From: Raillietiella orientalis
Taxonomy: Eukaryota
Length of the DNA: 33,303 nt
NCBI GenBank assembly: GCA_036172245.1
Contig: JAYWIR010000195.1
Coordinates: 1-33,303, forward strand
Reading direction: 5' to 3'
Part shown: one piece after another, positions 1 through 33,303 of the stretch
How the letters are laid out: every line of letters starts with the position of its first letter
Numbering within the stretch: position 1 is the first letter of the stretch
Made by a program: the position numbers and the translations under genes
The notes under the pieces: model-generated
What the model was told of the DNA's origin: nothing
Databases searched by the model: none
What the model saw: the letters and a program-made list of their open reading frames with translations, nothing else

Positions 1-2138
1 TTGATCGCCGGACTGTGGGCTCCGCGTCTGGGGCAGGTGGCCAATTCCATAATTAGCCCGGAGCAGACTTACGCTGTTCCCGGGCGAAGTATGGAGGCCA
101 ACCTTTTCTTCGCGAGCACATGGTTTCATGTGCAGAGTAGTCAAGAAAAGGAAGAGAGAAGGATTGGCAGCCCCGCTTTGTGGGCGTCAGCCGGGCAGGG
201 ACAGGACTCCCAGGTGGGGAAGGGAGCCCTAGCGATCGCAGTCGATCTGCATAAAGCGTTTGACTGCGTGGACCAGGATCTCCTGCTGGAGCTCCTGGGA
301 CGCATGGTCTTCCCTCCCTCCCTACTGACCTACCTGCGCTCTTGCTGGCGCAGCGTGCTAATCAATATCTCTTTCAGAGGTCAAATGGCGTACGGCTTGC
401 CGGTACGGCGGGGCATACATCAGGGTGACAGCCTCAGTCCCCTGCTCTTTAGCACCTACTTTGATCTGGTGCTGAGAGCGTACAGTTGACTTTGGCCCCC
501 TTGCCGAGCTTGTGCCCCGGCACGCCCGCCGTAGCAGCGTACTCCGACGATCTTTTACTCTTGTTACCGATGTCCACCCCGGCTTCGGCGGTCCAGAAGT
601 TCTTCGACCTGCTGAATCGAGGAACCGGACTTACGGTAAACAGGGCGAAGTCGACGGTGGTGTCAGTCGGTTCGGCGCAGGCTGGGCAGCAGGACTGGGT
701 CCGCTTGGGGTTTCCCACGGCGAGGTGCTTGAAGAATTTTGGTGTGCCGTTGGGGGACTACTCCTCTGCGGAATCGTGGTCCGGCTGCCACCAGAAATTA
801 GAGACGGCGATCGGCCCGTTCCTGGAAGGCAAGTTACACTTGCCAGAACGGGCCGCGGTATGGAACTTGTTCGCGGCTCCTATCCTCCGCCCCCTGCTTT
901 TTGTTTGCCATGTCCCCAGAGAGTTGAAAAAACGGACGAAGGACCTCCTGAGAATTGCCCTTTGGGGAAGAGGGAGGCGCCGACTCCCGTTGAAGGACTT
1001 GTGTGCTCCACGTCGGGATGGCGGTCTCTGCCTCTTGACGATGGAGCGAGTAGAGATTCAGCTGCGGTGGCGAACCCTCGCCATCGCAGCGAAGTTATGG
1101 AGCACCCCTTGGTGCGTTCCGGCCCGACTCCTTGCCAGCCGTGTATCCGGAACGGAGGGTCTCGCGTCCTATCTTCTGTGCCGTGGCAGGAAGATCAAGA
1201 GATGCGGACTTCTCCTGGGACGCATGGCAACTCTGGCTAAGGAAAACGGCTGGATGGTATGCAGCCCCGCCAACTCCTCCGCATGGCTGGAGGAGACAGC
1301 TGGCACGTGGGCGAAGATTAATGAAAAGAATGAAGAGATGTGGAACTGCCTGCGACGCGGCGCCTATTCCCGCTGCACTCTGCGGAAGATACTCCAGTGT
1401 CCCGCGAGAAGCACGTGGGCAGAGACAACCCCCCTAGCTACGGCGATGCCCTTCCTGAGGAGGGCGCTCTCCAGCAGCCGCAAGCCTAGGTGGCAAGTCT
1501 CCTGCCGCATCGCAGGCAAGGAGAAGTTGATCAGCGGCTGGTCCACGGGTGAACTGGCGGACGCCAGTACCCCTAGTGTCCAGCCGAGAGGACTGCAGAG
1601 ATGGGGCGAGCTACTCGGCATCCAGCCGGATGACCTGAAGTGGCCCCCGGTATTAATTGGATCTAGGATCCTCCCCCTGAAGTGGCAGGAGTCGGCGCTT
1701 CTGTTGTTGCATTGGGGTCTACCCTGCAACGCACGCCGCCACCACTGGACCAGGGGTCGAGTAGATCCTACCTGCATCAGGTGTGGGGAACGGGAAACTC
1801 TCCCCCACCTCCTTGTTGATTGTGCTGCCCTCCGACCCCTGTGGGAACGTCTTCGTGCCTCCCTACGGATCCAGGAGGGCAGCCAGCCCAGAGACGTTTT
1901 TCGGCTTCTGTTCGTGCATGATGCCCTGCGTCCAGCCGCTACCCTGGCTGCACTTTGCTGCGTACGCGGGATTGTGACGTGCTGGAGCAACGTCGGAAGA
2001 CCGAGCCACGACAGGGATGCCGTCGTACTTGCAGTCCGCTACCTGCGGATTGTGACCAGATGGCCCCACCTGGGAATTATACGGACGGACCTCGAAGGCA
2101 TCCTGCGAAGGATGGACCCTCCTCCCAGTGGTCAGTGA
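1..2138 (+). pseudogene. ORF2 reverse transcriptase, C-terminal two-thirds, one frameshift near 485
   Basis: ORFs 1..489 and 486..2138 carry consecutive RT motifs in different frames. Confidence 0.9.
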
Positions 2139-2343
2139 TCCCCCCCAACCCTCCCAAATCTTTTTGTTTTTATGTTTTATTTTTCTTTTTGTTTTTTCCC
2201 CCACCCCCTTCCGCTGCCGAGGAGAGTCGCGCCGGTCTGCGTACCGGCGACCCGGCAGGTCCAGTTGAGTTGGCCGTAGTGGGGCCTCGTACCACGAATC
2301 AAAGAGAATTTTTAATAAACGCCCCGGCGTGACCGGGTGGCAA
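1..2343 (+). mobile_element. L1/Tx1-like LINE copy A: RT, thumb, C-terminal CCHC and 3' UTR (runs off the window's 5' edge)
   Basis: RT motifs DLHKAFD, GIHQGDSLSPLLF and YSDD; CIRCGERETLPHLLVDC zinc motif; stop at 2138; U-rich 3' UTR; AATAAA at 2314-2319 followed by the terminal hairpin. Confidence 0.95.
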
Positions 2344-4440
2344 CTATCAACTTGGCATCCGCATTCACTATTGTGATGGGACGCCAGTTGTTCATGCTCC
2401 TCAGATCTCCTCCCTTAGGGAGAAGCCGCACCTTTGCCGAACGAAACGAGGCGGGAACGTCACCTGTCTCGCGTATCAGCAAGGTGAGTTGATGTACCAC
2501 GGGGGTTGGCTCAGCCGCGAAAGTTTGATAAAACTTTGCGGACAGGCCGTCCTCCCCTGGAGCCTTTCGCCTCTTGAGCTTTCGGATGGCCGAGATGAAC
2601 TCGCCCATCGTGAAAGACTCGTCGAGGGACTTTTTCTCCTCTTCCCCGATCGCAGTAACGCCTACCGGAAGCAGGATTCCTGAGAAATCCCGCTCGGGAG
2701 GCGTTCTTGCGTACAGGGAGGAGTGAAAACGCCGCAGCAGGCCGCGGATCTGAGCAAGTGCCGAGTGCTCCCGGCCCTGATCGTCCAGCAAGCTGGCCGA
2801 TCCTGACTGCCAGGCTTGCCTCGCGGCTCCCGCTTTGTATTCCGCCAGCCTGCGGATGTCGGGGGTCCTGGCGTAACGGCAAGCCTGCAGATAGGCTCGT
2901 TCGTTACGTACCCCGTCCACAAATCCCGAAGGTAGGCGGTGCCGAGGGAACTGGTCGCAGAACTCCTGGACCGACCGTCTGAAGCGGTCCCAATCCTGAA
3001 GTGTCTGTATCCTAAAGCTCCGTATAAACGTGCGGAGATGTTCCGTCGCGTCCGGGAGCTTCAGCCAGTCCCCTGGCAAACGCCACGCTGACGAGGGGGG
3101 GCACCTGTCGCGCGGATGGATTTCAATCACGATTGGTCGATGGTCGGACAACTCGCACGGCAACTTGCAGCGCCTGCCCACACGAGTGCACAGGTGCTCG
3201 TCAAGGAACACGTGATCGATGTTGTCCTCCATCCCTGGTACACTGGCCAACAAATTACAAGTGTGCACCGCCGCGCACACCTCGTTGACCAGGTCACGCT
3301 CGTGATTCGGCCCATCCGGTTTCAGACGAACGTTAAAATCGCCTGCAACCAGATGGGCATTCCGCACGCCTGCCTCGGTCAATCAGTCGCGATGGAGGGC
3401 AAGGAAAAATTCTTTCCTGGCCCTCCTGTTCGTCAGGTCCGCTCCGCTCGGGGCGTAAACGTTCGTTACGATCAGGTCGATCGAGTCGGACCAGCTGAGA
3501 GTCAGCTGGCCGACACGACCGTGATCGTCGGACCGAACTCCACGGGCGGCGGCCTCGATGGCGGGCCGAAGCAGGTAGGCGACACCACAACTTCTCGATG
3601 TTCCACACCGATACCACAGCCGCCCTTCGTAGATGCGTTCGATCTCCTGCGCTTGTTCTGCAGAGATCACATGGATCTTCTGCAGCAGTCCAAGGTCGAA
3701 CGATCCTAGAATGGCGGCCATGTTTCGTCTCCTGCCGGCGTCTGTCATCCCGTTCACGTTGCAAACGGCGATGTGCATACGACGGCGGGAGGAGATTCCC
3801 GGCATTACTGCCGGGAAGATGACGGTGTGGGGGAACCCGCCTCTTCCGAGGCGGGTGAGATGACCATTAGGGTTTCAGCCTCCTTAGGCACCTTGGGTAC
3901 CTTTCCGGCTTCAACCCCCTCCATCTCCTCCGTGTCTGTGCGTGGTGGTCTCTCAGGTGACGATTCGCAAGATTCTCCCACGCTCATGGCACCTTCGCAG
4001 TCGGAAGTCATCTCCACGCCTTCGACCTAGAGAGTGGCTTTCCAAGGTTTGCTGGACTTCCTTCCAGCCTTCCGGCGGGGTGCCGCGGAGATGGAAACTT
4101 GGTTTCCGGCCTGCGCTTCGGGGTCGGAAGTTACCGACTCCTCGGTGGAGGCCGGACGCCTCACTGCCTTTTTGCCAGCCTTGGAGGGGTCTGGCTGCAA
4201 CGATGCAGCCAGCTCCTCTGCCGCACGCTCGAAGGCGGCGTCATCGATCACGGTCTCGATGACGGACGCTTCCGCCGGTTCGCTCCCCACGCTGTTGACA
4301 TTTTCAACAGTGGGTTGCTCGTCGGTAGCAGCGATTTCTACCTTGCGGCGTTCGGCGGAAACGCGTTCCACGACGACGCTGCATTCTTTTGAATTCTCGC
4401 TAACCTGCTGTTTTTTATTTTGGTAGGCGAGCCTTTTTTA
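2344..4440 (-). mobile_element. LINE copy B: ORF1 C-terminus + ORF2 APE endonuclease, tower and RT N-terminus (truncated at NADAKLI)
   Basis: APE motifs CNVNG, NVYAP, GDFN, IDH, SDH; KAPGEDG and NWRPITIVNADAK RT motifs; in-frame stop at ~3383; TAATG overlap at 3803-3807. Confidence 0.93.
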
Positions 4441-4455
4441 AATTCGTCGTTCTAA

Positions 4456-6561
4456 GGCGTTTGAATGCGTCGAACAGGAACTCCTTTTGGAGCTCCTGGA
4501 ACGCGTGGGTTTCCCTGCCGTGCTCGAGTCCTACCTGCGCTCCTGCTGGCGCAACGCGTCTATTAATATTGGTTTCAGCGGCCGGTACGTGTACGGCGTG
4601 TCATTGCGCCGCGGCATCCGATAGGGTGACAGCCTGAGCCCCTTGCTCTTCAGCATCTACTTCCAGTTGGTTCTGAGGGCATACAGGGTAACTCTGGCAA
4701 CTCTGCCGAGCTCGTGAGCCGGCACACCTGCCATGTCGGCCTATGCAGACGATCTTCTGCTGCTGCTTCCCGAGTCTACCCCGGCGAGTGCGCTCGAGGA
4801 CTTCTCCGAGTTGCTGCGCCGCGGGACGGGCCTGGAGGTGAACTGGGCGAAATCGTCCATGGTCTTCGTCGGTTCGGCGTGGGCTGGACGGTCGGACTGG
4901 ATCCGCTTGGGGATCCCCATGGGCAGGTGCTTCAAGTACCTTGGCGTTCCGTTGGGGGACTTCTGCGCAGCAAAAGCCTGGTCCGTCCGTCTCCAAAAGG
5001 CAGCGTTGGCGATCGGTCCGTTCCAAGAAAGCAAGCTCTACTTGCAGGAACGGGCCGCAATGTGGAACGCGCTTGCGGCCCCCCTCCTTTGCCCCCTACT
5101 TTTTGTTTGACTTTCCCCTCATATCATCCAGACACGGAGCAAAGCCCTCTTGAGGACTGCCCTTTGGGGCACAGCGAGGTCGCAAGTCCGATTGACTTGT
5201 GCGCTCCACGCCGGGATGGTGGCTTGTGCCTCCTTACGTTGGGGCGCATGGAAGTGCAACTCCAGTTTAGGATTCTCGCCCTCGCGGCAGAACTGTGGGA
5301 CACGCCCTGGTGCATCCCAGCACGCCTCCTGGCCCAACGAGCCTGTGGATCCGGCGGACTTTTGTCGTTTCTGTCTGCGCTTGTCAACAAAAGAGCACAT
5401 TGTGGCTCTCACGTGCGACGCATGGCCGTTGCGGTTCGGGAGAACGCCTGGATCTCCTGCCTCCCAGGGAACTACTCTGCCTGGTTGCACGAGTCAGTCT
5501 CCACCTGGGAAAAGATCCACGTTCCGGCGGGCACAAGGAACACTTGCCTGAAAAGGCACGCCCGCTGGACGCTGCAGGAGATCGTGCAGTGGCACGACAA
5601 GCTTCTGTGGGCCTTGATAACCCCCCTCACTCCAGTGCTGCCCTTCCTTGTGAATGCCAGGGACAGTAGCGAGCAGGGGAAATGGACTGTGTCCTGCACC
5701 ATAGGCGGCAGGATACAATCGATAAAGGCGTGGACATCTCGGCAGCTAGCGGACGCTGCGACGCCGAGTGTCCCGCCCAACGGAATTCGACGCTGGGGCG
5801 AGCTACTCGGACTATCTTTGGAGGAGATAAAGTGGCCCCCAGCGTCCTGGAACAGTGCATCCCTCCCCCTGAAATGGCAGGATGTGGCGTTGCTTGTGGT
5901 ACTCTGGGGATTACCATTCAAAGCACGCCTGCATCACACCACCCGGGGGGCTGTGGATCCTAATTGTGACCGGTGTGGGGAAAAAGAAACATTCCTCCAC
6001 CTTCTCCTTGAGTGCAGCGCCCTCCGCCCTTTGTGGGATCGTCTCGCGGCGATCCTGGAATTGCGCGGATGCGGCCCAAAGGACGTTTTAAGGCGCTTCT
6101 TCTGTAGTGACCCCTTGTCCCCGCCCGCTAGTGTAGCAGTCTTATGCTGCATTAGAGGAATAGTGACGGCTTGGAACGCCACCAGATGAAGGCGTGAGCC
6201 AACCGGCAACGCCTTGAACTGGGCTCGCCTTTTCGCGCGCAGTGTCTGCAAGTGGCGCCACTTAGGCGCTGAAAGGACTCAGCTTGTCCGGATCCTGAAT
6301 AGGATCTAGAGGACCTGTCTACGCGCAACGTGATCCCTTCCCTGCCCTCCCACCCCTAAAACATTTGTTCCCCCCCCACATTTAAACTTTTTGTTTCTTT
6401 TTGTTTGTTATTTCCCATCCCAGCGCATCGGAAGGACCTCTCCGGCATGGAGCCGGCAACCAGCAAGCTGTTTTGGAGTGGTGAACCTTCGAGTTCGTCA
6501 CGCTACATTTCATGTATTTTTATTTCAAAGAAATAAATGCCCCGGCACATCCGGTTGTGAA
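4456..6561 (+). mobile_element. 5'-truncated LINE copy C (different subfamily): RT to 3' end
   Basis: KAFECV, YADD, KYLGVPL and CDRCGEKETFLHLLLEC motifs; stops and frameshifts; AATAAA at 6532-6537 + hairpin. Confidence 0.93.
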
Positions 6562-7600
6562 TCGCGACGGCGCGCGTCACCATGGACGACCGGAGGCTCA
6601 TGCCTTCGCAGATCCTCCTCGGTGACGTTGTCGTCTATCTCTGGTTTGCCGGGCAAACCCCTGCTTGCGGCAACTGCTGGAAGGAGGGCCACCGTCCGCG
6701 GAAATGCCCAACACGCACTTGCCGATACTGTAAGCTGCTCGGCTAGTCGATTAACGAGAGCGCCGAGCTAAAACGTAAGAGGAGGGCGAGAAACCTCCCC
6801 GCAACATCGCCGTCCGCGCCGCCTCCATCCGCCCCGTCGTCTGGGAAGAAATCCGGCGTGAGCGAGGTTCCGCAGCGGACAAGCACAAAGTCCGATCGTG
6901 AGGGCGCGTCTGGGAGCAATGCTTCACAAAAACCCGCGCTAAAGGACAAGAAGCCTCTCCAGGCTGCTTCAGTAAAGCGTCGAGCGACCCAGCCCGCCGA
7001 TAACATCGGGCAGGCTGCAAAACCACCACCGCTTCCGCCCGCTCTCGCTCCGGAGCGAAATAGCGGTGGCACTCCCGGGAAGTCCACTGGAGCGTCGAAA
7101 AAGGGGTCGCGCGCCCCTTTGCCCGCGACAGGCAAGCCGGCAACGGCGGGCAGAACGCCAGCAAAGGCTGAAAAGCCTCGCGCGACCTCCGAGAATCCCG
7201 CCACTCTGCCCGCATCTTCCGGTAAGGAGGTGCAAAAGGCAGACGTGGCGAAGGAGAAACTGGCCTCCATCGCCGTATCCGAGGCCTTGGAAAGGATGCG
7301 AAGGACCCTGGAAGCCCTCGCGCCCAACCGGGGCAAACAGGAAGGCGGCGAGGATGGCTGGACCTTCGTCGGGGTAAAGAAGGAGCGCAAACCGCGCGAT
7401 CCTTCCCACTTCCCGATTAAAATGGTAGGCGGGGTGAAGAGGCAGCCCCGCACGCCAAGGAAGGCGCAAGAAAAAGCCTCCGCTGCCGCCGCGTGCGCCG
7501 CCGCAAACACCCGCGGCGAGAGGGGAGCTGCCGAAGCCGTGACCCCGAAAGGGGGATCGGCGACGAAGGCACCCTCTAAGAAAGCTGGATCAGCTACGGG
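6562..7600 (+). mobile_element. LINE ORF1 fragment D with CCHC zinc knuckles and a basic low-complexity tail
   Basis: CGNCWKEGHRPRKC starting at 6666; decayed second knuckle CRYCKLLG*SINES; same frame as ORF 6858..7652. Confidence 0.85.
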
Positions 7601-7619
7601 TTGCCAGCGAAAAAAGAGC

Positions 7620-10160: not shown

Positions 10161-10164
10161 GTTC

Positions 10165-11058
10165 GATTTTAACCCGGATTTCGCTGAGCGCTTATTGTAA
10201 CAATGAACTTTAAGAAAGACGTGCAGTGGCTGGACCATTGCTCCAGCCACGCACGAAGAAACACAGAGCCTGCCGGGTCACCTGTTCGCATACCGGAACG
10301 GTCCACGACGGCAACAGGGGGAAGAGGGAAAAAAAACAAAAAAACAAAACAAAAAGAAAAGAAAAAGTGCGAGGGTACGGAAAGGGATCACTGTAGCTGG
10401 TGGGGCCGTTGCATCCTTTGGAGGATGCCGGCAAGCTCTATCTGTATTTGAGAATCCAGGTGGTGCCATCGCGACGCCTTCCTCAGAAATTGGAAGGCGC
10501 ACTGGATGGCATCCTGATCGCTTGGTCCTTCCGTAGCTGTGCTGCATGCGGCAACAATCCGGCGAAGGCAAAAGAAGGCTGCTATCGAGGCCGCTGGCCG
10601 GAGGGCGCCGGCAACGGAGAGCGCTTTTAAGGCGTCCCTGGGGTTGCCGCAGAAGATTCCGATGGCCGCGGCAAAGCGGAGCCAAAGGGGCCGAGAGGCA
10701 ACACAATCCACAAGCAGGTAGGGGAGGGACTCCCTTTTCCCACACCTGACGCAATAGTGGTCCACCGCTCCCCAGGTCCAGTAGTGTCGGCGGGCGTTGC
10801 AGGGGAGTCTTCAGTGCTGCAACAGGAATGCCGACTCCTCCCATTTCAAGTGGAGGATGGAGGTGTTCATAAGTACCGGGGGCCACTTCAGACGTTCAAT
10901 GGGAACGTCAAGCAGCGCTCCCCAGCGAAGAAGTCCATGGGAAGGCGCACTCGGGGTGGCAGCGTCAGTCAGCTGACCCGTCTTCCACTCTCCTATCTTC
11001 TTTTTTCCGGAGATTGTTACTGTAACCTCCCACTTTGCCGCAACATCGCTTTCCAGTT
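10165..11058 (-). mobile_element. 5'-truncated LINE 3' fragment G (left arm of fold-back)
   Basis: CVRCGKRESLPYLLVDC; 3' UTR and terminal hairpin on the minus strand (10167-10196). Confidence 0.92.
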
Positions 11059-11904
11059 ATCTCCGGGAAAAAGAAGATAGGAGAGTGGAAGACAGGTCAG
11101 CTGACTGACGCTGCCACCCCGAGTACGCCTCCCCATGGACTTCTTCGCTGGGGCGCGCTGCTCGACGTTCCCATTGAACGTTTGAAGTGGCCCCCGGTAC
11201 TGATGAACACCTCCACCCTCCCCTTAAAATGGAAGGAGTCGGCATTCCTGTTGCAGCACTGGGGACTCCCCTGCAACGCCCGCCGACACCACTGGACCTG
11301 GGGAGCGGTGGACCACTATTGCGTCAGATGTGGGGAACGGGAGTCCCTCCTCCACCTGCTAGTGGATTGTGTTGCCCTTCGGCCCCTTTGGTTCCGCTTT
11401 GCCGCGGCCATCGGAATCCCCTGCGGGAACCCCAGGGACACTCTAAAAGCCCTCTTCGTTGCCGACGCCCTTCGGCCTGCGGCCTCGTTAGCAGCTTTGT
11501 GCTGCTTTCGCGAGATCATGACCGCCTGGAGCAAGGCTACGGGAGGACAACGCGACCAGGGTGCCATCCAGCCAGCCTCCCAGTTCCTGAGGAGGGCGTC
11601 CCGATGGCCATACCTGGATCCAGGAATACAGAAGGAGCTTGCCGGCATCCTGCAAAGGATGCAACGGCCCCACCAGCAACTGTGATCCCTTCCCTTACCT
11701 TCCCAACTTTTCTTTTCTTTTTTGTTTTGTTTTTTGTTTTTTCCCCCTTCCCCCTGCTGCCGTGGTGGACCGTACCGTTCTGCGAACCGGTGACCCGGCA
11801 GGCTCTGTGTTTCTTCGTGGGTAGCTGGAGCAATGGTCCAGCCACTGCACGTCTTTGTGAATGTTTATTTCATAATAAACGCCCCGGCGAAATTTGGGTG
11901 AAAA
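11059..11904 (+). mobile_element. 5'-truncated LINE 3' fragment H (right arm of fold-back)
   Basis: CVRCGERESLLHLLVDC; stop at 11685; AATAAA at 11874-11879 + hairpin. Confidence 0.92.
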
Positions 11905-11909
11905 TCGAG

Positions 11910-12940
11910 GACTGTACGCTGGACAGCCGCTGCAGGAGATTATCAACACGCCCCGGAAGTTTCTGTGAGCTTCTTTCACCCCCCTTGCCCCCGTTCTGTG
12001 CTTCCTGAATAAAATTAGGAGCAGCAACGAGCGGGCATCTTGACAAGTGTCCTGCTTCGTCCGAGGCAGCAGAAAATCTTCAAAGGCGTGGACGACTCAA
12101 GAGCTAAGGGACGCTGCCACTCCGAGCGTCCCGCCTCAAGGGATTGCGCGCAGGAGAGAGCTGCTCGCTATACCTCCAGAGCAGGAGAAGTGGCCTCCAG
12201 CGTGTTAAGATAGCGGCACCCTTCCTTTAAAGTGGCAGGATATGGCGTTGCTATTTCTGCGCTGGGGACTGTTACGCAGAGCACGCCTGTCTCACTGTAC
12301 ACTGAAGAATGTAGATGCCCGCTGTGTCCTGTGCCGTGAAAAGGAAACCTACCCGCATCTCACCCTCGAGTGTGTTGCCCTGGTTGAACTGTGGAGTCGA
12401 ATCGCCCGAATTTTTCATTTTCCTGTAGGCGACCCAAAGGAAATTTTCCGTCGCCTCTTCCTGCGTGACGGCCTGCGCCTCGCAGCGTCTCTAGCAGTCC
12501 TCTGCTGCGTGCGCGGCATCGTGCAATGGTGGCACGTCAGAAGAAGAGGCCCAAGATGCAGGGACGCTATCCACTGGACGACGATGTCTTTGGAGACGGC
12601 GACAAGGTGGCGTCCACCTCCAACTATTACAACAGAACTTGTCTGCATCCTGAATAGGATGAGGACGACCGACCCAGGCGTCCAGTGATCCCTTCCCTGC
12701 TCTCTACCTCCCCATATAACTGTTTCCCTCCCGGTTATTTCTCTTTTTGTTTCTTTTTGTTTGAGTTTCTACTTCCCACGCGCCTCGGGAATGGACCTAA
12801 CCGGTCTCGGCACCGGCATTCGACACGTCTTCCAGCGTGGGAAAACCAAGAATTTTTCCCACAAAAACATATCAATAGACTTTATTAACTAAATTAATAT
12901 TAATTAGATTAATAAATGCCTGGCATATCCGGGTGACAAA
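11910..12940 (+). mobile_element. 5'-truncated LINE 3' fragment I
   Basis: DAATPSVPP, LPLKWQ and CVLCREKETYPHLTLEC; stop at 12688; AATAAA at 12911-12916 + hairpin. Confidence 0.9.
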
Positions 12941-14745: not shown

Positions 14746-14749
14746 TGTG

Positions 14750-16640
14750 CGGCAGGAGCGCAGAGAAAGTTCATTCGCCCGGCTCCCGTACGCGAGAGTG
14801 CCTCCCGAGCGGGATGTCTAACGACTCCTGCTTCACGAAGTCGCTTAAGCTATCAGGGAGGACGAGAGAAAATCCCTCGACAAGTTTTTCACGATGGGCG
14901 AGATCATCTCGGCCTTCGGAAAGCTCAAGAGGCGCAAGGCTTCAGGGGAGGACGGCCTGCCAGCGAAGTTTTCTCAAACTTTCGCGGCTGAGCTTTCCCC
15001 CTGGTACAACAACTCATCTTGCTGATACGCAGGTGACGTACCAGGCTCGTTTCGCTCGGCAAAGGTGCGGCTCCTCCCTAAGAAAGGAGTTCTAAGGAGC
15101 ATGAATAGCTGGCGCCTTATCACAATAGTGAATGCGGACGCCAAGTTGCTAGCCAAGGTTCAAGCAGAGCGTTCCGGACGGGCTGCAAACGCCGTCATCA
15201 GCCCTGAACAGACGTATTCTGTTCCCGGGCGAAGAATGGAGACGAACCTGTTCCACGCTTCCACCTGGCTTGTGCTCCAACATGTAAGGAGCCTGATGCG
15301 CAGTGGAAATTCCAGTGAGTCCGTCAGCCGTGGGACGAATGGTCAGGTGGGGGAGGGAGCCCTTACGGTCGCTGTCGACTTCCGTGAAGCATTCGACAGC
15401 ATCGACCAAAATCTCCTGCTGGAGCATCTGGAACGCTTGGACTTCCCGCCTCATTATTGGCCTATCTGCGCTCCAGACGGTGCGACACGCTAATCGGTCT
15501 TACTTTTAGCGGGTAGACCGTGCATGGCGTGCCGGTGCGGCGTCGGATACGGTAAGGAGACAGCCTGAGCCCCTTGCTTTTCAGTACCTACTTTGAGTGG
15601 GCACTGAGAGCGTACAGGGAAATTCTGGCGCACCTGCCTCACGACTGCGCAGGTACGCCTGCGGTTTCGGCATACGCGGACGACCTTCTGCTGCTGTTTC
15701 CTATGTCCACCCCTGCTTCGGCGGTGGGGGAGTTCTTCGACCTGCGGAATCGAGGAACCGGTCTTACGGTGAACAGGACGAAGTCGTCCGTGATGCCAGT
15801 TGGCGCGGCGTGGGCAGGGCAGCAGGACTGGGTGCGTTTGGGGATCGCCACGGTGAGGTACTTCTAGTACCTAGGAGTGCCGTTGAGGGACTACTCCCCT
15901 GCGTAAGCGTGTTCCGGTAGACTCCAAAAAGTAGTGACGGCGATCGGCCCGTTCCGTGGCGGCAGGTTTTTCTTGCCTAAACGGGCCGCGGTTTGGAATA
16001 CGTTCGCGGTTCCTCTTTTCCTCCTTCTGATTTTTGCTTGCTCCCGCACAGAGAAGATTAGAAAGGGGACGAAGGACCTCCTCCCTATCGCCCTTCGGGG
16101 CAACGGGAAAGCCCGAGTCCGTTTTAAGGACTGGTGCGCTCCGCGTCGTGACGGTGGTCTCGGAATCCTGACATTGGAGCGTCTGCAGCTTCAGCTCCAG
16201 TTCCGTTTAGTGACTATTGTGCCGGAGTTTTGTTGAAACTGCTGGTGCGTCCCTGCACGTCTTCTCCTCCAGCAAGCCACTGGCAAGACGGGACTCACTA
16301 CCTTACTTTCACTCCATCACTTCCGCATCAACCGATGTGGGCTCCACCTTCGGAGGGTGACTGCCTTGGTTCGAAAAAATCGAAGATGGATCACCTATTG
16401 CCCCGCGAACGGTATTGCCTGGTTGCAGGAAACCGTTCGCACGTTGGCCCAGTGCAGCATGCAACGCGCCCAACAGGAATGACGGTTCTTGTTTGGGTGC
16501 TACATAAGTTGCACGCTCCGACAGATCCTGGTGGCAGACGGAAAGGATCGCAATCTTTGTTGGGGGAGCTTTCGCGGGTTTCTTTCGCCGACTCACCTTC
16601 ACACGAAGCTTCGAGCTCCTTGATGGTTTCTTTTTAATCA
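14750..16640 (+). mobile_element. LINE internal fragment K: tower end, RT and thumb (decayed)
   Basis: KASGEDG, WRLITIVNADAK, DFREAFD, YADD and CAPRRDGGL motifs; many stops. Confidence 0.9.
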
Positions 16641-17160
16641 TCTTTCTTACCTGCATCCAGCCGTCTCCCTTCGCGTCGCAGTTATCTTTGCCATCCTTAC
16701 ATGGCACTGCGTCCGCGGATGTAAGAGGCGTTGCCTTGGCTGCCTCTTGGAGTGCTGCCTCTGGGCAGGCGTAAGCGACTCCCTTGGCGATCGCCAGAGG
16801 CTCTGCTTCTTCCTGATCGGAGGATTCGCGCGTCGCTTTTGCGACCGTTAGGGGCGCTGCTGTATCGGTTGTACTCGCCGTGGCAGTTTCTTCCGTGGCC
16901 CGAGCAGGTGCTGCGTTTGGGCGTTAGGGTTGCAGGTTTACCTGCTGTTTCGTCGCGGCACTAGGCGCCTGGTGCACCTTTGCCGTGCTCCACTTTCATG
17001 GGTGGAGGAGAGCAAGTCGGCTCTCTTTCTGCAATTTCCATCGCGGTGTCCTCAGGCAAATCTGCCATAGGACACCGGCGCTCCCACACACCAAACAAAA
17101 CCACCCAAAACCTACGCACTTACCAGACCACTGTGCGATGCCACACCACTTACGCTCCCT
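16640..17160 (-). mobile_element. LINE 5' end L: 5' UTR + ORF1 N-terminus
   Basis: ATG at 17068 (MADLPEDTAMEIAEREP), homologous to copy J's start; GT-rich 5' UTR. Confidence 0.75.
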
Positions 17161-17164
17161 AGAA

Positions 17165-17773
17165 GGACACAGGTGAGAATCCAACTGTGCTCGGTGTGGG
17201 GAGCGGAAAACCCTTCCTTATCTATTAGTTGACTGTGCTGCCCTCCGGCCCCTCTGGAAACGCTTCGGTTCCAACTTAGGGATCCAGGAAGGTAGCCTTA
17301 CCAGAGACGTTTTTCGTCTCCTCTTCGTGCGGGACGTCTTGCAGTCAGCCGCCGCTGTCCTAGCAGCTCTGCTGCGTACGCGGTATTGTGGCATCTTGGA
17401 GTGGATCCGACGAAGTAGAGGATGTTAACGGAAGGGATGACCTGAAGTATGCAGTTCGCTCTCTGCGAATGGCATCCCGATAGCCTAACCTAAGAAATCT
17501 GTACCAGGACCTCGTCGGCATCCTGCAAAGGATGGAAGCTCCACGCTACGGACAGTGATCCCTTCCCGGCCCTGCAAATGCCAAGTGTTTTTTCTTTTTC
17601 TTTATTTTTTTATTTTTGTTTTTCCCCCAACCCTATTCCTTGACGTGGAGTGTCAAGTCGGTCTGCGCCCCGACCACCCGCCAGCTTCATAGAACTATTA
17701 GCCGCAGCGGGGCCTGGTACCGCAAACACTGTAAGTTTTTTTAAATAAACGCCCCGGCTTGACCGGGTGAAAA
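17165..17773 (+). mobile_element. Short LINE 3' fragment M
   Basis: CARCGERKTLPYLLVDC; CAGTGATCCC stop context; AATAAA at 17744-17749 + hairpin. Confidence 0.9.
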
Positions 17774-18800: not shown

Positions 18801-19598
18801 AAATCCTGATACATGAAATCTGATTCATGGAATTTCGCGGCTTTCCATCACACAGCGAATCTTTCAGAATTTCGGAGAAATTGATTGCCCCAATAGATCG
18901 AGTAAACTTATTCAACGGTCAATTGAGTTCAAAAACGGATCACTCTCATACACAAGAGTCACAACGAAATACATTTTCAATTCCACTATAATACTTTCTA
19001 GTGTGTGATAAGCTCTTTTTTGAGGGAGCCGTTTGATGATTGATCATTGCGTGCGCCACGCTTATGCTTTAGAAACATCGACTTCTGTAAGAAACTTCTT
19101 TAGACGAAACCCTTATCTCTTCGTAGGTGGCACCTAACGTTTCCAGTGACTTACTAAGTTTCGATCACTTTACAGTAGGCATCCTTTGAGTAAAGACTAT
19201 CGTAGTCGCGTTTGGAAAGCAGCGATATCTTCATAAAAAGAAAGGGTTGGATTTCATACTATTCCGTGAACACTTGAATTTTCATATCGTCTTCGTGTTG
19301 CGAATTCAGAAATTGGTAATTGCACTAGAAAAATTGAATTTTTTTTTTGTAAACGAATATTTCAAAGGTTCTGATTTTTACTGTATCTTATTAGCAAAAG
19401 CATGAGTCATCCTTAAATTGTCATCTTCCACAGCGATTAATGACTGCTTCATTCATCAGCACAGCACAAGCAGGAAGTGAATAAGAATCCCAGCAGTATA
19501 TTTATTTTCACTTTATTCCGTCACTACTAGCGAATACGCAGGGAAGGCTACTTTCGCTGCAGATGGTGAGAGTTTTCTTGGATCTCACTAGTTTTCAG

Positions 19599-20160: not shown

Positions 20161-20227
20161 CTTAATTAGGAAGGTGTCTTACTCGATATTCGGTGAAACT
20201 GAGCACTGACATGGTCCTTTTAAGAAG

Positions 20228-24700: not shown

Positions 24701-26944
24701 AGAATTGGACACTCGCCAATCTGATTTTGCTAGGATTGAAGACCATAATCTTTAATGCATTAGAACGTCTTGCTATGTTTACTGGTGCACACAATCTTGA
24801 AGGTGCATGATGAGAACTATGATGAAAAACGCGGACGGTGAGAGAGAACATACCAATGATACATGAAGCAACATGCGAGACAAACTTTCTGCCGTGGACA
24901 TGGAAACCAAACATGAGGCTTCGATCTGTGTATTTCCTGACACCTGTGAAAATGGGGCAAGGCGTTCTCCCCAGTGTACACGGAATGTTTCTGGCGCAGG
25001 AGCAGCAGGTGTAGGCCACGTGAGCAGGAAAGTTGCCAAAAGCGAGTCTTACCATTGCTGAATACGACGAGATCAAACCAGGTGTGTGCAAGATTCTTGA
25101 GTAGGCTGATGATTTATAGTTCTCAGCATGTGCGCAAGTTTCCGAATATGCAAACACGGATGCGATGAAATGAAAATCACAGTCGTTAAATGAACATGCA
25201 CTTAGTCTCGTGAAGCTTCATGGGGATTTATCAGGAACACATTCCATAATGTATCTATAATCCAATGAGGAGCTTAAGAAATTTTTGGAAAAGGACACAT
25301 GAAACAGCAAGCATGCCAATAAACCTAAGTAATCACGAAATGGTGTGGAGTTTGAGTTATGTGCTAGGGCGTCGCACCAGCGATGCGCTTTGTTGCTCCT
25401 GCATTCAGATAATAAAATCTGACAGTTCGCTGCATATGTGGAGGCTGATGCAATTATGGCCTAGTATGGATATTCGCAATCTCAAAGTTTAGATTTCCAA
25501 GATGGAGGAAAGTATAGCTTTTAACAAGAATTACGGCAGCAGAACATGGAGAGTTTGGAGCACTAAAACAGCAAAGAAATTTAGGAAATACAGCATGTTC
25601 ATAACAGACCTTCTATCTCCAGTAGCAGAGAGTACGTAAATTTCTTCGATTAGAGGAATCACAAGAACATGTTTTTCTCTGGTTGCACGGCTGCAGATGT
25701 TCAACACTCTAAGTCCTCAGTTGAAGATGTGTTTGAAGAACCACGAGAACATCCAAGGTGGCATTTTTAAACAAGGCATGGAAGTCGCTGTTTTTCGAGG
25801 TTTCAGCAAATCTGCCGGAGATGCAAAAGCAGCATCCTGTAATTAGGATTCAGATTCTTGCTCAGGCAGCTTGTGCTCTACTCACTACTGAAGTTCAGTT
25901 TATTCGCATTGAAGGAAGGAAACTACCCACCTGGCAGGTTCAGGGAAACACCGAAGATGAGAAAACCGACGCAAGAAATGCTGTAGACGGGTACAAACAT
26001 TGAGGAGAATGAAGTGCATGCGCTTATCGCGTTCCAGCAGCTATCGCCTAGGCAACTGCAACAAACGCTTTCTCATTGTTCCTTCCGCACTTCGGTGAGA
26101 TAGAGCTTCTCTCACAGGTGAGTCACAGGAAGATGGAATGCGCTCCTGCTGGAGAGAGGTCCTCCTTTGGCGTAGCACTCGCCTAATGATTCCATTCGCA
26201 CCATTGCATGCACGGGGATGCCGAGATTTCCGGGACTCAGCCTGCCTCTCGGAATCCACAGCTGTGTTTATGCGGACATCGCTGACTAACGCAGAGGTTC
26301 GTCTGCTATCACGAGAATGCGATGCGGGTAACTTCATTACCAAAGTGCGGTTTGTAGGGTGTCTCGGATTCTTAAAAATTCTGAAGTGTCCTTTCTGTTC
26401 AAAACTTTCGACAAATCACTTTGAAGAGCAGTAAGGGGCCGCGCTGCTGATTATATGAACGGTATCTTGAGGAGAAATGGTAGCTGACATGAATATCTCG
26501 GGAAACTGGGTACCAATGTCATCAGCTTATTTCACTTTCCTGGACACCGTTTTTGATCCGAAGTTAATCGAGTCCCGTTGCTCACCAACATTGAGTTAAG
26601 TTCTTGAAATCGCCACCATAAATACGGCATGGTCTTCGACGAATCCTCAACAGCGAAAAGTACATTTTTTTTGTACGCGGATAAAACTATCTGTTTGCTT
26701 TCTGTTGCATTGCACTCTCTGTGAGATAAAGCCTGCTTCCAAGTTTATATCGTCCGGAATATAAGCATGAAAAAACGTAAGACAATCACCTGAAAGATTA
26801 CGACGAGCAACAGCTCTAGGAAATTCATACTATCATGCGCGAGGTCTAAGAATGATGCTGTGTTTGCTGTTGATTTGTAGTATTTTGTTCTAGACCACGT
26901 AATCTGAAGAATTACAGGGTTCTTGAAAAAGAGGACTAAGGACT

Positions 26945-28329
26945 TACCTTGCATCGCCCTCTGGGGCAGCGGGAGACCCAGAGTGCCTCTGAAGGATTTA
27001 TGCGCTCCGCGTCGGGATGATGGTCTTGGTCTCCTGACGCTGGAACGCCTCGAGATTCAGCTGCGGTGGCGCACCATGGCCATTGCGGCGAAGATGTGAT
27101 GCACCCCTTGGTGCATTCCGTCCCGCCTCCTTGCCAGACGTGTGTCTCGGTGCGAAGGACTCGCGTCTTTTCTTCTGTGCCGCGAACGGAAGATTCTAAG
27201 ATGCGACTACTGCTCGAAAGCATGGCAAACCTGGAGAAAAAGAACAGCTGGATAGTTTACTGCCCTGCCAACTCCGCCGACTGGCTGGAGAAGACTATTG
27301 ACACCTGGGCTGTAGTAAACCAGAGAAGGCACGAGACGTGGAATCGCCTGTGACGCGGCGCCTACTCCCGCTGAACCCTGAGGAGCCTATTGAAGTGTCC
27401 CGCTAAGAGCACGCGAACAGAGACGACCTGTCTAACTACGGCGCTGCCCTACCTGAGGGGGGCACTTCACAGCAGCCAGACGCCAAGGTAGCAAGTTTCC
27501 TGCTGCATCGCGGGACATAAGAATTTGATGAGCGGATGGAAAATAGGAGAGCTGGAGGATACCGCTACCCCGAGTATCCTACCGCGTGAACTTTTGAGAT
27601 TGGACAACATGCTCGCCATCCCAACGAATGAGCTGAAGTGGCCACCGTTTCTCATTGGGTCCAGGATTTTGCCGATGAAGTGACAAGAGTCGGCGCTGCT
27701 GCTGTTGCACTGTGGTCTACCATGCAAATCGTGCCACTTCCACTGGACAAGAAGAGCTGTAAATCCTGATTGTGCCAAGTGCGGGGAGCGGCAATCGCTC
27801 CCCCACCTTCTTGTAGACTGTGCTGCCCTCCGACTCCTATGGGTGCGGTTCCGGACGACTCTCGGGTGCCCGTTATACAGTCAATCCAGAGACGTTTTTC
27901 GGCATCTGTTCGTGTGGGAAGCCCTGCAGTCAGCCGCAGCGATGGAAACACTTTGCTGCAACCATGGCAACGTGGCTGCCTTGAGTGATACCCGCGACGA
28001 AGGAGTGGATCCAAACGAGGAGCCTGTCATCCCATATGCGCTCTGCTTCATGAGAAGAGCTACAGGATAACCCCAGGTAAGAAAAATGCAGAAAGACCTC
28101 AAAGGCATTCTGCAAAGAATGGTCCCTCTTCAGAGTAGACAGTGATCCCTTTCCCTCCCTGCAAACTCTTTTTGTTTTTCTTTCATCCCATTCCACTGCC
28201 AAGGAGAGTCACACCGGGCTGCGTTCCGGCATTCCGGCAGGTCCGGTGTTGTGTGACCGTTAGTGGGGCCTTATACCACGTTTTCTGTAAAGATTTTAAA
28301 TAAACGCCTCAAGCGTTACCTGGTGGAAA
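26945..28329 (+). mobile_element. 5'-truncated LINE copy O: thumb to 3' end
   Basis: ALWGSG..KDLCAPRRD; CAKCGERQSLPHLLVDC; AATAAA at 28299-28304 + degenerate hairpin. Confidence 0.92.
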
Positions 28330-28750: not shown

Positions 28751-29630
28751 TTTCATAACCAGTCTCGCCGGTACCTTTATTACGGTGAACTAGAGGGAAA
28801 CAGTTGTTTCTCTCCAGGGACTGCAAAAAACCAGCAACGAAGATACTCCACGAGCACGCAGACCAGAAAAACAAAAGGGCCTGAACGAATGTGTGAGAAG
28901 AGGTCTTCAAACAAAAAAGAAAAGTCTAAATGGGAGGAATGGGCCAGAGAACTATGGTGATGCTCCCCAGTCACCGGGAAAAACAGAGTGGACGCACAAA
29001 AGCACTACGGAGCGAATAAAAGGAGTGACGCGACAACAACAATGCAGTTTAAATGGAATGGAGGTGAATTACCGGGTTCGTCGTTCCAATCCGTGCCTTA
29101 TACAGCGATGGATGAAGGCGAGCTCCTCCGTTAAGTTTTCGCTCAATTGTCGCAACTAAGCGGCCGAACTGATGAAGTCGGCTGCCATCCTCGTGACACA
29201 GCATCGCTGGCCAGTGTTATCCAGCACGTTTGGGACCATGAAGATGGCGCGGATACAACCAACTGTAGAAATCGTCATAGATGTCTTTGTAGTTGGAAGA
29301 ACCGTCGCAATACTTCTCAATTGGTGTCCACCGTTGAGAGGAGAGCTAATGCTAACCACCGCCACAGTTACTGAAGGGCAACACAGTCCATAACAAGGTG
29401 CAGGAACGACTCGTCACAAGCACATTAGGAAGAAGCCACCCCACCGGAAACTCGGTGACGCCGCTCGCTGTAACGCAAGCCCCGGTGCAAGAAGAGATTG
29501 ACGTCATGCTACCATGCAAGGTAAAACACCGAACCGTCCAAACACCAAGCAGGAATTATAAGTTTCTTCGAAGCAACACGAAGAGCTTCTCCTCACCGAA
29601 GTGGGGCGGCCCTAGTCCACGTCCCCCACC
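28751..29630 (-). mobile_element. Divergent LINE 3' fragment Q
   Basis: Minus strand reads LFLHRGLRYSERRHR...ESFLHLVMDCVAL; ends taataaaggtaccggcgagactggttatgaaa. Confidence 0.78.
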
Positions 29631-29633
29631 TCC

Positions 29634-30122
29634 CATTCTACCTTGCCCTCGGAAGCGATTGGCTGACCAAATCACGTGTTTGCAAAGCGCACCTCATCAA
29701 TTTTAACCTGCGCCTGCTTTCAGGCGCGCCGGTTACACCGAACGACCGCGTCAACGAGTTGTGCGCACAAATGCACACGTGCAACTTGTTGTCCGGAGAT
29801 ACGGACATGGAACGCAGCATCGATCACGTGTACCTCGACCAGCACCTATGCTATCGCGTGGGCAGGCGCGGAAAGTTACCGTCCGAGCTGTCGGATCATG
29901 CCCGAATCGTGTTCGAAGTGCATCAGCGTGACAAGGGACGCCCCACGTCAGCGTGGCGTCTCCCAGGGGACTGTCTGAAGCTCCCGGACGCGGCGGAACA
30001 TCTCCGCACGTTCATACGGAGCTTCAGGCTGCGGACACTTCAGGAATGAAACCGCTTCAAGCAGTCGGTCCAGGAGTTCTGCGACCGGTTCCCTTTGCAT
30101 CGCCTACCTGCGGGATTTGGGG
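29634..30122 (+). mobile_element. LINE APE fragment R (FYLALGSDW to HRLPAGFG)
   Basis: SIDHVYLD, ELSDH and TSAWRLPGD motifs. Confidence 0.9.
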
Positions 30123-30328
30123 TTGCCACCCGGGTACTCCCAGGGCGTTTATTTCAAGACTCTACAAAACGTGGCACTAGGCCCCACTGACTGCCACACA
30201 ATACCGGACCTGCCGGGACGCAGCCCGGTGAGACGCTCCTTGGCAGTGGAGGATAGTTTGGGATAAAAAACAAAAATAAAATAAAGATAAAGAAATAACC
30301 AAAAGAGTTTGGTGGAGAGGAAGGCATA
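30123..30328 (-). mobile_element. LINE 3' UTR-only fragment S (copy O subfamily)
   Basis: ccactgccaaggag...ccgggctgcgtcccgg...aataaacgccctgggagtacccgggtggcaa. Confidence 0.88.
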
Positions 30329-33303
30329 ACGTTTATTGTAAACTCTTTTTACAATTCGTGGTACTAGGCCTCACTACGGCGAACACAACAGGACCTCCCA
30401 GGTCGTCGGTACGCTGACCGGCGCGACTCTCCTCGGCAGCGAAAAGAGGTGGGGGAAAAACAAAAAGAAAAACAAAACAGAAAACCAAAAGAAGCTGGAG
30501 GGCGGGAAAAAGATCACGGTTTACTGGGAGGAGGGTATATCCTTTCCAGGATGCCCTCGAGGTCCGTCCGCATGATTCCCAGGTGAAGACATATGGTTGC
30601 AAGCCGCAGGTAGCGGACTGCCAGTTCGAAGGCACCCCTCTCGTGGCTCGGTGTTCTGAAATCGCTCCAGCTCGTCACAATCCCTCGGATGCAGCAGAGT
30701 GCTGCCAGGGCTGCGGCTGGTCGCAGGGCATCCCTCACGAACAGAAGCCGAAAAACGTCTCTGGGCTGGCTGCCCTCCTCCAGCCGTAAGGAGGTACCAA
30801 GACGCTCCCACAGGGGTCGGAGGGCAGCACAATCAACAGAGAGGTGGGGGAGGGTTTCCCGCTCCCCACACCTGACGCAGGCGGGATTCACTCGAAACCT
30901 AGTCCAGTGGTGGCGGCGTGCGTTCTCAGGGTAGACCCCAATGCAACAGCAGAAGCGCCGACTCCTGCCACTTCAAAACGACGATCCTCGATAAAAGAAA
31001 ATCCGGTGGCCACTTCAGGTCATCCATCGGTATGACAAGCAGCTCGCCCCATCTTTTGAGACCACGCGGGAGGACACTTCAGGTAGTGGCATCGGCCAGA
31101 TGCACCGTGGTCCAGCTACTTAACTTCTTCTCTCTGCCTGCAATTCCGCAGTAGACTTGCCACCTAGGCGTGCGGCTGCTAAAGAGCGCCCTCCTCAGGA
31201 AGGGAATCGCCGTAGCTAGGGGCGCAGGCTCGGCCCACGTGTACCGGGCGGGATACTGAAAGAAGGTCCGCAGGCTGCAGCGGGCGCGGTTGTGGAATCG
31301 CAGGCAGTTATAATTTTCTTCTCTTTGGACATTTCACCTCGCCCACGTTCCAACAAATTCCTCCAGCAATGCGGAGGAGTTGGCAGATCTGCATACCATT
31401 CAGCCGTTCTCCATGGCCAATGTTGCCATGCGCCCGAGCAGCAGGCCGCATCTTCTTCTCATCGGGCTTGGGCGCAGAAGAAAAGACGCGAGTCCATCGC
31501 AGCGGGACGCACAGCTGGCAAGGAGGCAGGCCGGAACGCACCATGAGGTGCTTCACATCTTCGCTGGATGGCAAGGGTTCGCCATCGCAGCTGGATTTCC
31601 ACGCGCTCCAGCGTCAGGATGCTGAGACCGCCGTCCCGACGCGGAGCGCGCAACTCCTTCAAAGGAACTCGGAGCCTCCCGTTGCCCCAAAGGGCTATGC
31701 AAAGGAGGTCCTTTGTCCGCTTTTTAGATTCCACGTGGGCGGGGCAAACAAAAAGCAAGAAGCGGAGGATGGGGGCCGCGAAGGCATTCCAAACCGCGGC
31801 CCGTTCTGGCAAGGGAAACTTGCCTTCCAGGAACGGGCCAATCGCCGTCTCGACTTTTTGGAGGCAGCTGGACCACGCTTCCGGAGGGAAGTCCCCCAAC
31901 GGCACACCCAGGTGCATGATGCACCTCACCGTGGGGATCCCCCGACGGACCCAGTCCTGCTGCCCTGCCCACGTCTCTCCAACTGGAACCACCGACGACT
32001 TCGACCTGTTAACCTGTAATCCAGCCCCATGGCTAGGCAGGTCGAAGAAATCTCCGACCGCCTTCCCCGGGGTGGACATAGGTAAGAGAAGCAGAAAATC
32101 GCCGGCATTCGCCGCTACGGCTAGCGTGCTGGGGCACGAGCTCGGCAAGAGGGCCAAAGTCACCCTGTACGCTCTCAGCACCAACTCAAAGTAGGTGCTG
32201 AAGAGCAGGGGGCTGAGGCTATCTCCCTGCCTTATGCCCCGCCGCACTGGCACGCCATACACCTTGTGACCGCTGAAAAAGACGGTAATCATCGCATTCC
32301 GCCAGCAAGAGCGCAGGTAGGAAATCAGGGAGGGTGGGAAGCCCATGCGACCCAGGAGCTTCAAGAGTAGTTCCTGGTCTACACAGTCGAACGCCTTGTG
32401 AAGATCGACTGCGAGCGCTAGGGCCCCCTTCCCCGCCCGGGATTCCTTCCCAGCCCGGCTGACGGCCCCAATGTGGAGTTGCCGACTTTCCCTATCCCTT
32501 TCTTCTCTCTTCTCTGTAGGTGCATGCATGTGCTTGCGAAGAAGAGGTTGGCATCCATACTTTGCCCGGGAACAGCATCAGTCTGCTCCGGGCTAATTAC
32601 AAATTCTGCCACCTGCCACAGACGCGAAGCCCATAGCCCTGCTATTAACTTGGCGTCCGTATTCACGATCGTCATCGGACGCCAGTTTAAATCTCGGAGG
32701 TCTCATCCTTTCGAAAGGAGCCTCACTCTGGCTGAGCGAAACGAGGCGGGAACATCGCCTTCGTCTCGGATCAGCCTGATCAACTTAAGCAACAGGGGTG
32801 AAAGCTCTTCCGCGAAGCTCTGAAAGAACTCCGCGGGCAAGCCGTCTTCCCCTAAAGCTTAACGCCTCTTGAGCCTTTTGATACCGGCGAGCATTTCTCC
32901 GGTGGTAAAGGGCTCGTCGAGGCTTTCCATCTCCTCCTCCCCTATAGCCGGGGCGCAATCCGGAAGCAAGCGACGAGAGGCGTCTCGATCCGGAGGCTCC
33001 CTGGCGTATAGGGAGGAATAAAAACTCCGCACGAGATGCCGTACCGACGCCGAAGACGAACATTCCCGGACCTAGTCGTCCAGCATGCTGGCCGACCCGG
33101 ATTGCCAGCCCTGGCGTTCGGCCCCGGCGCGGTACTCGGCCAGGCGACGGACATTAGGGGTTCTCTCGTACCTACGGGCCTGTAAGTAGGCCCAATGGTT
33201 GCGAGGACCCTCGCCGAATCCAAGGGGCAGGCGGTCCAGGAAGAGCTGCTCACAGAACTCGCGGAACGATTCCTTAAAAAGGTCCCAGTCCTGGAGATTC
33301 CGG
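30329..33303 (-). mobile_element. LINE copy T (copy A subfamily): tower, RT, CCHC, 3' UTR; runs off the window edge
   Basis: DLHKAFD, GIRQGDSLSPLLF, mutated active site (NAGD for YADD), CVRCGERETLPHLSVDC; the 3' UTR stops just after AATAAACG. Confidence 0.95.

Follow-up and report, generated by a model that had tools for sequence, protein, structure and literature searches.

LINE copies in the stretch of DNA analysed here (33,303 nt in full, referred to as the window) share one particular way of ending. All nine LINE 3′ ends that can be defined in the window carry a module of 30-31 nt, composed of AATAA[A/G], ~20 nt able to form a GC stem of 4-8 bp and a final run of 2-4 A, and at each site this module lies on the same strand as the element, ~160-430 nt downstream of its last ORF2 homology. 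In the full layout, the hexamer (AATAAA in eight of the nine modules and AATAAG in one, at 10196 on the minus strand) is followed by two bases, mostly CG or TG, a CCGG-type inverted repeat with a loop of 4-6 nt, TG, one or two further bases and the 2-4 A. The consensus of the stem is YG-CCC(C)GG / 4-6 nt loop / CCGGG-UG, often with one bulge, and the end reads ...RMAA. We put at about an even chance that these 30-31 nt are the true and selectively maintained 3′ terminus of a diversified L1-like family, and for the annotation of 3′ ends in this poorly represented family the module is a precise marker. An earlier note on this DNA had claimed nine sites with a common ending, and all nine are present at the positions and on the strands given below, with about seven of them independent.

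The 33-kb window has a GC content of 55-60% on either side of an AT-richer stretch (42-48% GC, ~18-26 kb), and its CpG observed/expected ratio of 0.77-1.17 means that CpG is not depleted; a ratio of ~0.8-1.2 is presumably unlike that of methylated plant or vertebrate repeats. Mapping by tblastn with the window's own ORF pieces placed at least 10 LINE fragments, which make up ~63% of the window, and gave the order of the element as endonuclease, a linker of ~350 aa, reverse transcriptase (RT), zf-RVT and a 3′ UTR of ~160-230 nt. The copies share 65-86% DNA identity, where they are alignable at all, and ~30-77% protein identity in their ORF2 C-termini. All insertions that bear a terminus are old and broken, and the longest open frames are kept in copies A and F (557 and 519 aa, respectively).

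Most of the ORF2 domains were recognised in several copies. An Exo_endo_phos match at 9228-9539 (+) lies just below the cut-off (E 5e-5, 23.6 bits vs 24.5), and a homologue of it is found at 3838-3512 (−), directly upstream of linker and RT homology. RVT_1 was matched above the cut-off at 1-489 (+), 15026-15493 (+) and 31459-32577 (−) (E 1e-10 to 4e-7). zf-RVT was matched in four copies (E 5e-6 to 7e-4), of which only 4630-6189 (+) reaches the gathering score (27.6 vs 27.5), and its C..C..H..C columns are nearly invariant in an alignment of the copies. A profile made from two window ORFs and eight relatives, and dominated by distant ones among these, matches the whole length of human L1 ORF2p (E 1e-196), whereas R2 proteins match the same profile in the RT only; searched alone, a window ORF matched no PDB chain. 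The best Atlas protein cluster is named ‘LINE-1 ... ORF2’ (score 0.96). Among 63 matches with E<=1e-3 in a search of 1.84 billion protein representatives, one or two are close relatives (P0001, 59% identity, and P0002); one relative was found in the similar-length range and none among longer proteins, and a scan of prokaryote genome contigs and viral contigs with the ORF2 protein returned no relative. As far as sequence comparison can tell, the elements fit an L1-like non-LTR type, and the same assignment in the earlier note is borne out by the AP-type endonuclease, RVT_1 and zf-RVT together with the end-to-end match to human L1 ORF2p.

Copy A (1..2343, +), which is cut by the window start, runs from RT to zf-RVT with a 3′ UTR of ~180 nt and closes with the module at 2314..2343 (+), which reads AATAAA, CG, CCCCGG / CGTGA / CCGGG, TG and GCAA, with 2 A; its minimum free energy is −9.8 kcal/mol and it scores 42.2 bits against a nine-copy covariance model. 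Directly after this tail lies the antisense LINE piece C (3874-2344, −). The 5′-truncated copy F (4454..6561, +) covers RT to zf-RVT and the 3′ UTR, and its module (6532..6561, +) has a 4-bp CCGG stem and 2 A. Piece G (9216 to ~10127, +) is followed by three copies that each consist of the ORF2 C-terminus and a 3′ UTR. The first of these, H (10167..11065, −), has a module at 10167..10196 (−) with AATAAG, a decayed stem and 4 A, which scores 30 bits and is the palindrome partner of that of I. In copy I (11056..11904, +), the 3′ arm of the module (11874..11904, +) is TTTGGG and pairs only via G-U wobbles, followed by 4 A. Copy J (11906..12940, +) begins directly behind the tail of I and has a 6-bp stem with a U-G wobble and 3 A in its module (12911..12940, +). 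Copy D/K (14789..17773, +), which we infer to be one single copy, comprises linker to RT, a degenerate stretch and the ORF2 end with the 3′ UTR, and its module (17744..17773, +) forms a 7-bp stem with one bulged C, followed by 4 A. Copy L (17807-18794, +) is degenerate and has no recognisable end.

The remaining copies lie in the last third of the window. Copy E (26923..28329, +) is 5′-truncated, and its module (28299..28329, +) has a decayed stem and 3 A. It is followed by an antisense linker fragment, M (28752-28334, −), and by copy N (28751..29688, −), the most divergent copy with ~30% amino acid identity to A and F in the ORF2 C-terminus, whose module (28751..28781, −) has the stem ACCGG/CUGGU and 3 A. 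Next come a further LINE piece (29663-30118, +) and copy B (30123..33303, −), which is 80% identical to A at the nucleotide level and has a duplicated 3′ UTR; its module (30123..30153, −) forms an 8-bp stem with a bulged U and the loop AGUA (−12.8 kcal/mol), followed by 2 A.

The genomic 3′ ends are thus uniform, reaching 30-31 nt from the first A of AATAAA and closing with 2-4 A in nine of nine copies, and the base after the A-run is always C or T. No copy among the nine has more than 4 A, and none shows an A-rich flank or a degenerate A-rich tail directly behind the run. In A and F, whose open frames are the longest, the run is of the shortest length, 2 A.

Several tests bear on chance and conservation. 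A scan with a loose IUPAC pattern was not significant, giving 7 matches against 2.87 expected, with at least 7 in 7 of 100 shuffles. In a held-out test, only the four termini of A, K, F and J went into a covariance model, which, run over the window, recovered four of the five termini that had been left out (B with E 5e-8, I with 1.3e-6, N with 1.5e-4 and E with 1.9e-4); it missed the decayed module of H (10196, −), and its next match, at E 5.9, is noise. This non-circular test has a clear outcome, and the common ending is real and beyond chance. Averaged over pairs of copies, the module is 72% identical (67% once AATAAA is left out), whereas the remaining 3′ UTR reaches 52-55%, the end of ORF2 54% and the 30 nt past the A-run 48%; shuffled sequences give 47-51%, or 47-48% for the flank. 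Alignments between independent copies stop at the A-run (for copy A at 2343, 2339 and 2344). Because the alignments end at this point and the identity of the module exceeds that of UTR, ORF2 end and flanks, the module is best seen as the element's own and its best-conserved part. That 2-4 A are followed by unrelated sequence, as the earlier note had also stated, agrees with the run lengths in all nine copies and with the shuffle-level identity of the flanks. In addition, a motif scan of viral contigs gave no match to the module, and a lone match in a metagenome contig (L001) was set aside as chance, since it lies in a 59% GC stretch without LINE homology by tblastn or blastn.

Two pairs of copies owe their likeness to duplication at the DNA level. 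H (−) and I (+) are the arms of a palindrome (10163-11908), 86% identical and arranged head-to-head around a centre at ~11035-11060; both begin at about the same ORF2 residue and their tails point outward. TCGA is present on each outer side of the dimer, where, being self-complementary, it is indistinguishable from an extension of the palindrome. H and I could be an inverted dimer with a 4-bp target duplication (e.g. by snap-back synthesis) or a later DNA foldback, and apart from this possible TCGA, inspection of the junctions by eye gave no convincing target-site duplication. E (28299, +) and B (30153, −) have at least 300 nt of flank in common, with 77% identity and the same junction, and their tails join an antisense LINE fragment at the same linker residue (...EFCD.FP.HRL...F, ~aa 154). 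Since the H/I and E/B pairs are inverted duplications of DNA, the nine termini represent about seven independent insertion events. The larger inverted duplication around E and B pairs 26923-28752 with 29663-31725, such that E with M mirrors B with the piece at 29663-30118, and N sits at its centre. The flanks of E and B are 77% identical and their bodies only 68%, while the body of B is 80% identical to that of A; copy B may be a recombinant. The antisense piece at 2344-3874 ends within ~6 nt, in element coordinates, of where A starts at position 1, which looks as if the 3′ part of one element had been inverted in place, or as if the start of the window and contig were the centre of another palindrome.

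At four tails, the 5′ end of a further LINE fragment in the same orientation lies within 0-33 nt (G behind F, J behind I, L behind K and M behind N, at 6561, 11904/11906, 17773/17807 and 28751/28752, respectively). Such abutments suggest that insertion sites were re-used, or that template jumping or nesting took place, and some are expected by chance where LINEs occupy this much of the sequence. G and J may once have formed a single old element, which was split by the H/I dimer with a loss of ~1.9 kb. Every internal junction of the nest shows the hairpin and 2-4 A.

Other features of the window were noted alongside. An open frame at 6579-7650 (+) contains a single CCHC zinc knuckle (6666-6707) and, behind it, a long stretch rich in Lys, Arg, Pro, Ala and Ser; it has no Pfam match at E<=0.01 and, lying directly after the tail of F, is probably a 5′-truncated remnant of ORF1. 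The AT-richer region at 18800-26900 separates two LINE nests; within it, at 23287-23383, 48 nt are perfectly duplicated in tandem. Neither LINE homology nor a Pfam match nor a gene-like ORF was found within these 18.8-26.9 kb, and the layout recalls, by analogy, a centromere core flanked by repeats. Between the tail of J and copy D (12941-14788), a 24-nt tandem repeat is found at 14435-14537 (4.3 copies, 68% matches), the unit of which contains CCCC-TTTTTCAA-GGGG. A match to mir-8830 in Rfam at 8146-8235 (+) reached 33 bits, where the gathering score is 76 (E 0.043), and is most likely due to chance; this sub-threshold match overlaps a 36-nt GC-rich tandem repeat. No other Rfam match, even below threshold, and no tRNA were found in the window.

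The 3′ UTRs have a common layout as well. Each starts, just past the ORF2 stop, with a conserved GTGATCCC, which is followed by a pyrimidine-rich tract of 50-70 nt made of T runs broken by G or C and then C runs, parts of which were caught by Tandem Repeats Finder (e.g. 2160-2215, 10329-10360, 11708-11740 and 30455-30490, with equivalents in the other copies). In copy B, the UTR is duplicated (~168 nt, within 30123-30537, −): the proximal UTR copy has the upstream hairpin and AATAAACG at 30337-30330 and stops without a terminal stem, and a complete UTR with the stem comes next. A T-rich stretch precedes AATAAA in eight of nine copies, the ninth having AATAAG, and the distance from the hexamer to the A-run is 20-22 nt, with the run often placed after CA, GA or UA. 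Ordinary poly(A) sites are laid out in this way, so polyadenylation of the RNA probably takes place exactly where the element ends, and the lack of a tail would then be a property of the DNA copies only. The proposal of a hairpin instead of a poly(A) tail therefore stands for the DNA copies, none of which exceeds 4 A, and does not extend to the RNA, which probably is polyadenylated.

The evidence for an RNA stem within the module is mixed. In an alignment that had been fitted to the structure beforehand, standard pairs occupy 85.5% of the pair cells, compared with 29-48% when the partners are slid. Among the seven pairs of the terminal stem there is one double change (C-G to A-U, in copy N), and most of the changes are G-U compatible. 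Stem covariation, a check put forward in the earlier note, turned out not to be significant, since the share of paired cells was reached by 137 of 500 shuffles and the number of double changes by 332 of 500. Folds of single sequences (z −1.76 to +0.96) were no better than those of dinucleotide shuffles; the stem is present in the single folds of six or seven copies and weakened or lost in I, E and H. RNAalifold returned 0 pairs for the nine copies over 125 nt, and for the closer copies A, K, E and B it returned the terminal stem and an upstream GUGG/CCAC stem. The stem arms are among the most conserved positions and the letters of the loop vary much more, so that the earlier statement of varying loops on a mostly retained stem is sound as a description; as an argument for structure, it is inseparable from plain sequence conservation, and three of the stems have decayed. 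Two further hairpins are found upstream. In copy A, the first of these is GCCGG-TCTGCGTA-CCGGC at 2231..2248 (+); its CCGG-N8-CCGG core occurs in all eight copies aligned, ~70-85 nt before the hexamer, with 82.5% of cells paired and two double changes, and 46 of 500 shuffles were as good. The second, GTGG-N9-CCAC at 2279..2295 (+) in copy A, is common to A, K, E and B and has one double change (K has GCGG/CCGC). Taken together, this suggests, and does not prove, that the 3′ UTR of these LINEs is structured. Conservation of the primary sequence, e.g. as a single-stranded RNA or DNA site for a protein of the element or the host, with the stem as a mere by-product of CCGG composition, would be in line with the insignificant covariation, the shuffle-level fold energies, the empty nine-copy consensus fold and the high conservation of the stem arms themselves; we nevertheless think it quite unlikely, because the arms pair in register far more often than when slid, the loop varies far more than the stem, an insertion makes the stem of B longer and N has A-U in place of C-G.

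In our view, the best-supported reading, with roughly even prospects of being right, is that of an L1 lineage with a fixed start that recognises a stem-loop (‘stringent-like’), for which we infer RNA folding, ORF2p binding, cleavage and the start of the cDNA. In the proposed model, the T-rich stretch and AAUAAA would act as the poly(A) signal, cleavage and poly(A) addition would take place right after the stem, and the transcript would gain its poly(A) immediately 3′ of it. ORF2p would bind the terminal stem-loop, possibly with the two upstream UTR hairpins, and target-primed reverse transcription would start within the first 2-4 A of the tail, leaving integrated copies almost tail-less; this precise initiation would represent a ‘stringent’ mode, in contrast to that of mammalian L1. 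Because no copy has more than 4 A or an A-rich flank, cDNA synthesis indeed seems to begin at a fixed place by the stem. The earlier note's inference of a ‘stringent’ L1/Tx1-like group is reasonable and supported in part. Possible, but on the unlikely side, is a stem that is mainly an element of 3′-end processing, fixing the element's last nucleotides as the place of cleavage and polyadenylation or strengthening both there, with the short A-runs arising separately, e.g. from annealing of the nicked target to no more than the first A's. The stem does lie downstream of the poly(A) signal and ahead of the predicted cleavage site, in what has the layout of a poly(A) site, and structures at such a position are known in some retroviruses. 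An element that ends at its own cleavage site would also be without a downstream GU/U-rich signal, and a processing role explains the conservation of the module and the held-out recovery equally well. By itself, however, it leaves the absence of tails longer than 4 A in all nine copies unexplained, and the 3′ UTR, with two more conserved hairpins, is reminiscent of those of stringent LINEs. Recognition by the RT and a role in 3′ processing are not mutually exclusive. The many inverted duplications in this rearranged nest and the age of all copies (65-86% identity) would allow for short tails that are secondary, the poly(A) having been lost later, or for a recurrence inflated by DNA-level duplication. 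We consider this very unlikely: seven junctions have unrelated flanks, a decayed poly(A) normally leaves A-rich remnants, of which there are none directly after the run in any of the nine copies, and A and F, with the longest open frames, have runs of the shortest length. That the module was already in place as a target for LINE insertion is hardly credible, as it has in its favour only the general tendency of the Tx1 group to site-specificity (PMC3472496), and a shared target would continue beyond the A-run, where the sequence is unrelated (48%, as in shuffles). The nine-copy covariance model, run over the 33 kb with filters off, found no tenth instance up to E=10, so that the occurrence of the module as a target without an attached element, which the earlier note had named as evidence against its own proposal, was not encountered in the window.

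The idea of a stringent lineage within the L1 clade is already in print. L1-clade lineages with a conserved, hairpin-forming 3′ end have been described, and stringency has been argued to be ancestral (Ohshima 2012, PMC3472496; review PMC3747384); L1-clade families without any 3′ repeat number 9 of 233 in flowering plants and 5 of 15 in green algae (PMC3472496, Table 1). The present elements are set apart by the motif, its position between signal and end, the near-absence of a tail and a host that looks neither plant- nor vertebrate-like. Within the literature covered, Repbase entries and subscription journals being outside its scope, the exact arrangement of signal, hairpin and 2-4 A was not found described. 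More tentatively, and with some doubt, we propose an L1-like lineage, from such a host, in which poly(A) signal, stem-loop and cDNA start are fused in one module of 30 nt.

Outside the L1 clade, stringent LINEs are described as binding the 3′ stem-loop through ORF2 (PMC4176376). Eel UnaL2 and zebrafish ZfL2-1 and ZfL2-2, of the L2 clade, likewise have a short terminal stem-loop and fixed initiation of the cDNA; binding of the cognate stem-loop by the ORF2 region between EN and RT, and dependence on the stem-loop, have been shown experimentally for L2-clade LINEs, whereas here both are proposed, and their ends are short repeats, e.g. (TGTAA)n, rather than A's, with no poly(A) signal beside the stem in that account (PMC4176376). 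SART1, an R1-clade element of silkworm, depends on both particular motifs in its 3′ UTR and the poly(A) junction to start reverse transcription precisely; by the summary of it in PMC3472496, it differs in that its genomic copies keep a poly(A), in being telomere-specific and in belonging to another clade. For human L1 and Alu, a bulged stem of several bp, placed near the 3′ end and having a loop of 5-7 nt, has been proposed as a recognition element for the RT (Grechishnikova and Poptsova 2016, PMC5135761); this proposal is likewise computational only, and human L1 differs in having a long poly(A) and in being functionally ‘relaxed’.

In its domains and context, the window recalls Grem-LINE1 from the pericentromeres of Mucoromycotina, which, according to 10.1101/706580, has an ORF1 zinc finger, an ORF2 with AP-endonuclease, RVT and zf-RVT, and a 3′ poly(A) signal, and whose copies cluster in gene-free nests round an AT-richer core. 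The same domain set is found in the window, with the CCHC knuckle in the frame that follows F and with nests flanking the AT-richer region. Grem-LINE1 copies are at least 90% identical in that account, compared with 65-86% here, and the two are likened by architecture and context only.

Close parallels are found in plants and algae. In the monocot ‘1a’ L1 (LINE1-1_ZM), together with maize and sorghum SINEs, and in L1-1_CR of Chlamydomonas, the last 45-80 nt are conserved far above the body and are capable of forming a hairpin, and these 3′ ends, like the present module, have been read as stringent recognition inside the L1 clade (PMC3472496). The plant and algal hairpins have the loop UCU and the 3′ flank CGAG, unlike the letters of the present module (PMC3472496). 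The present hairpin further differs in lying between AATAAA and the end, in the 2-4 A that follow it and in having no SINE partner in the 33 kb, where no module was found without a LINE body. Whether the L1 clade was originally ‘stringent’, reading a 3′ RNA structure, and later became ‘relaxed’, reading poly(A), in mammals and some plants is an open question (PMC3472496, PMC4176376), to which one more unrelated L1-like lineage, nearly tail-less and with a fixed module at its end, would add a data point. The coexistence of divergent subfamilies with different loops would also offer a natural series for cognate recognition between ORF2p and tail. If poly(A) signal, stem-loop and cDNA start are truly fused in one module, the head-to-tail abutments and the head-to-head dimer would be explained by the same fixed start, and this would be a third independent case of stringency in the L1 clade, supporting stringency as its ancestral state.
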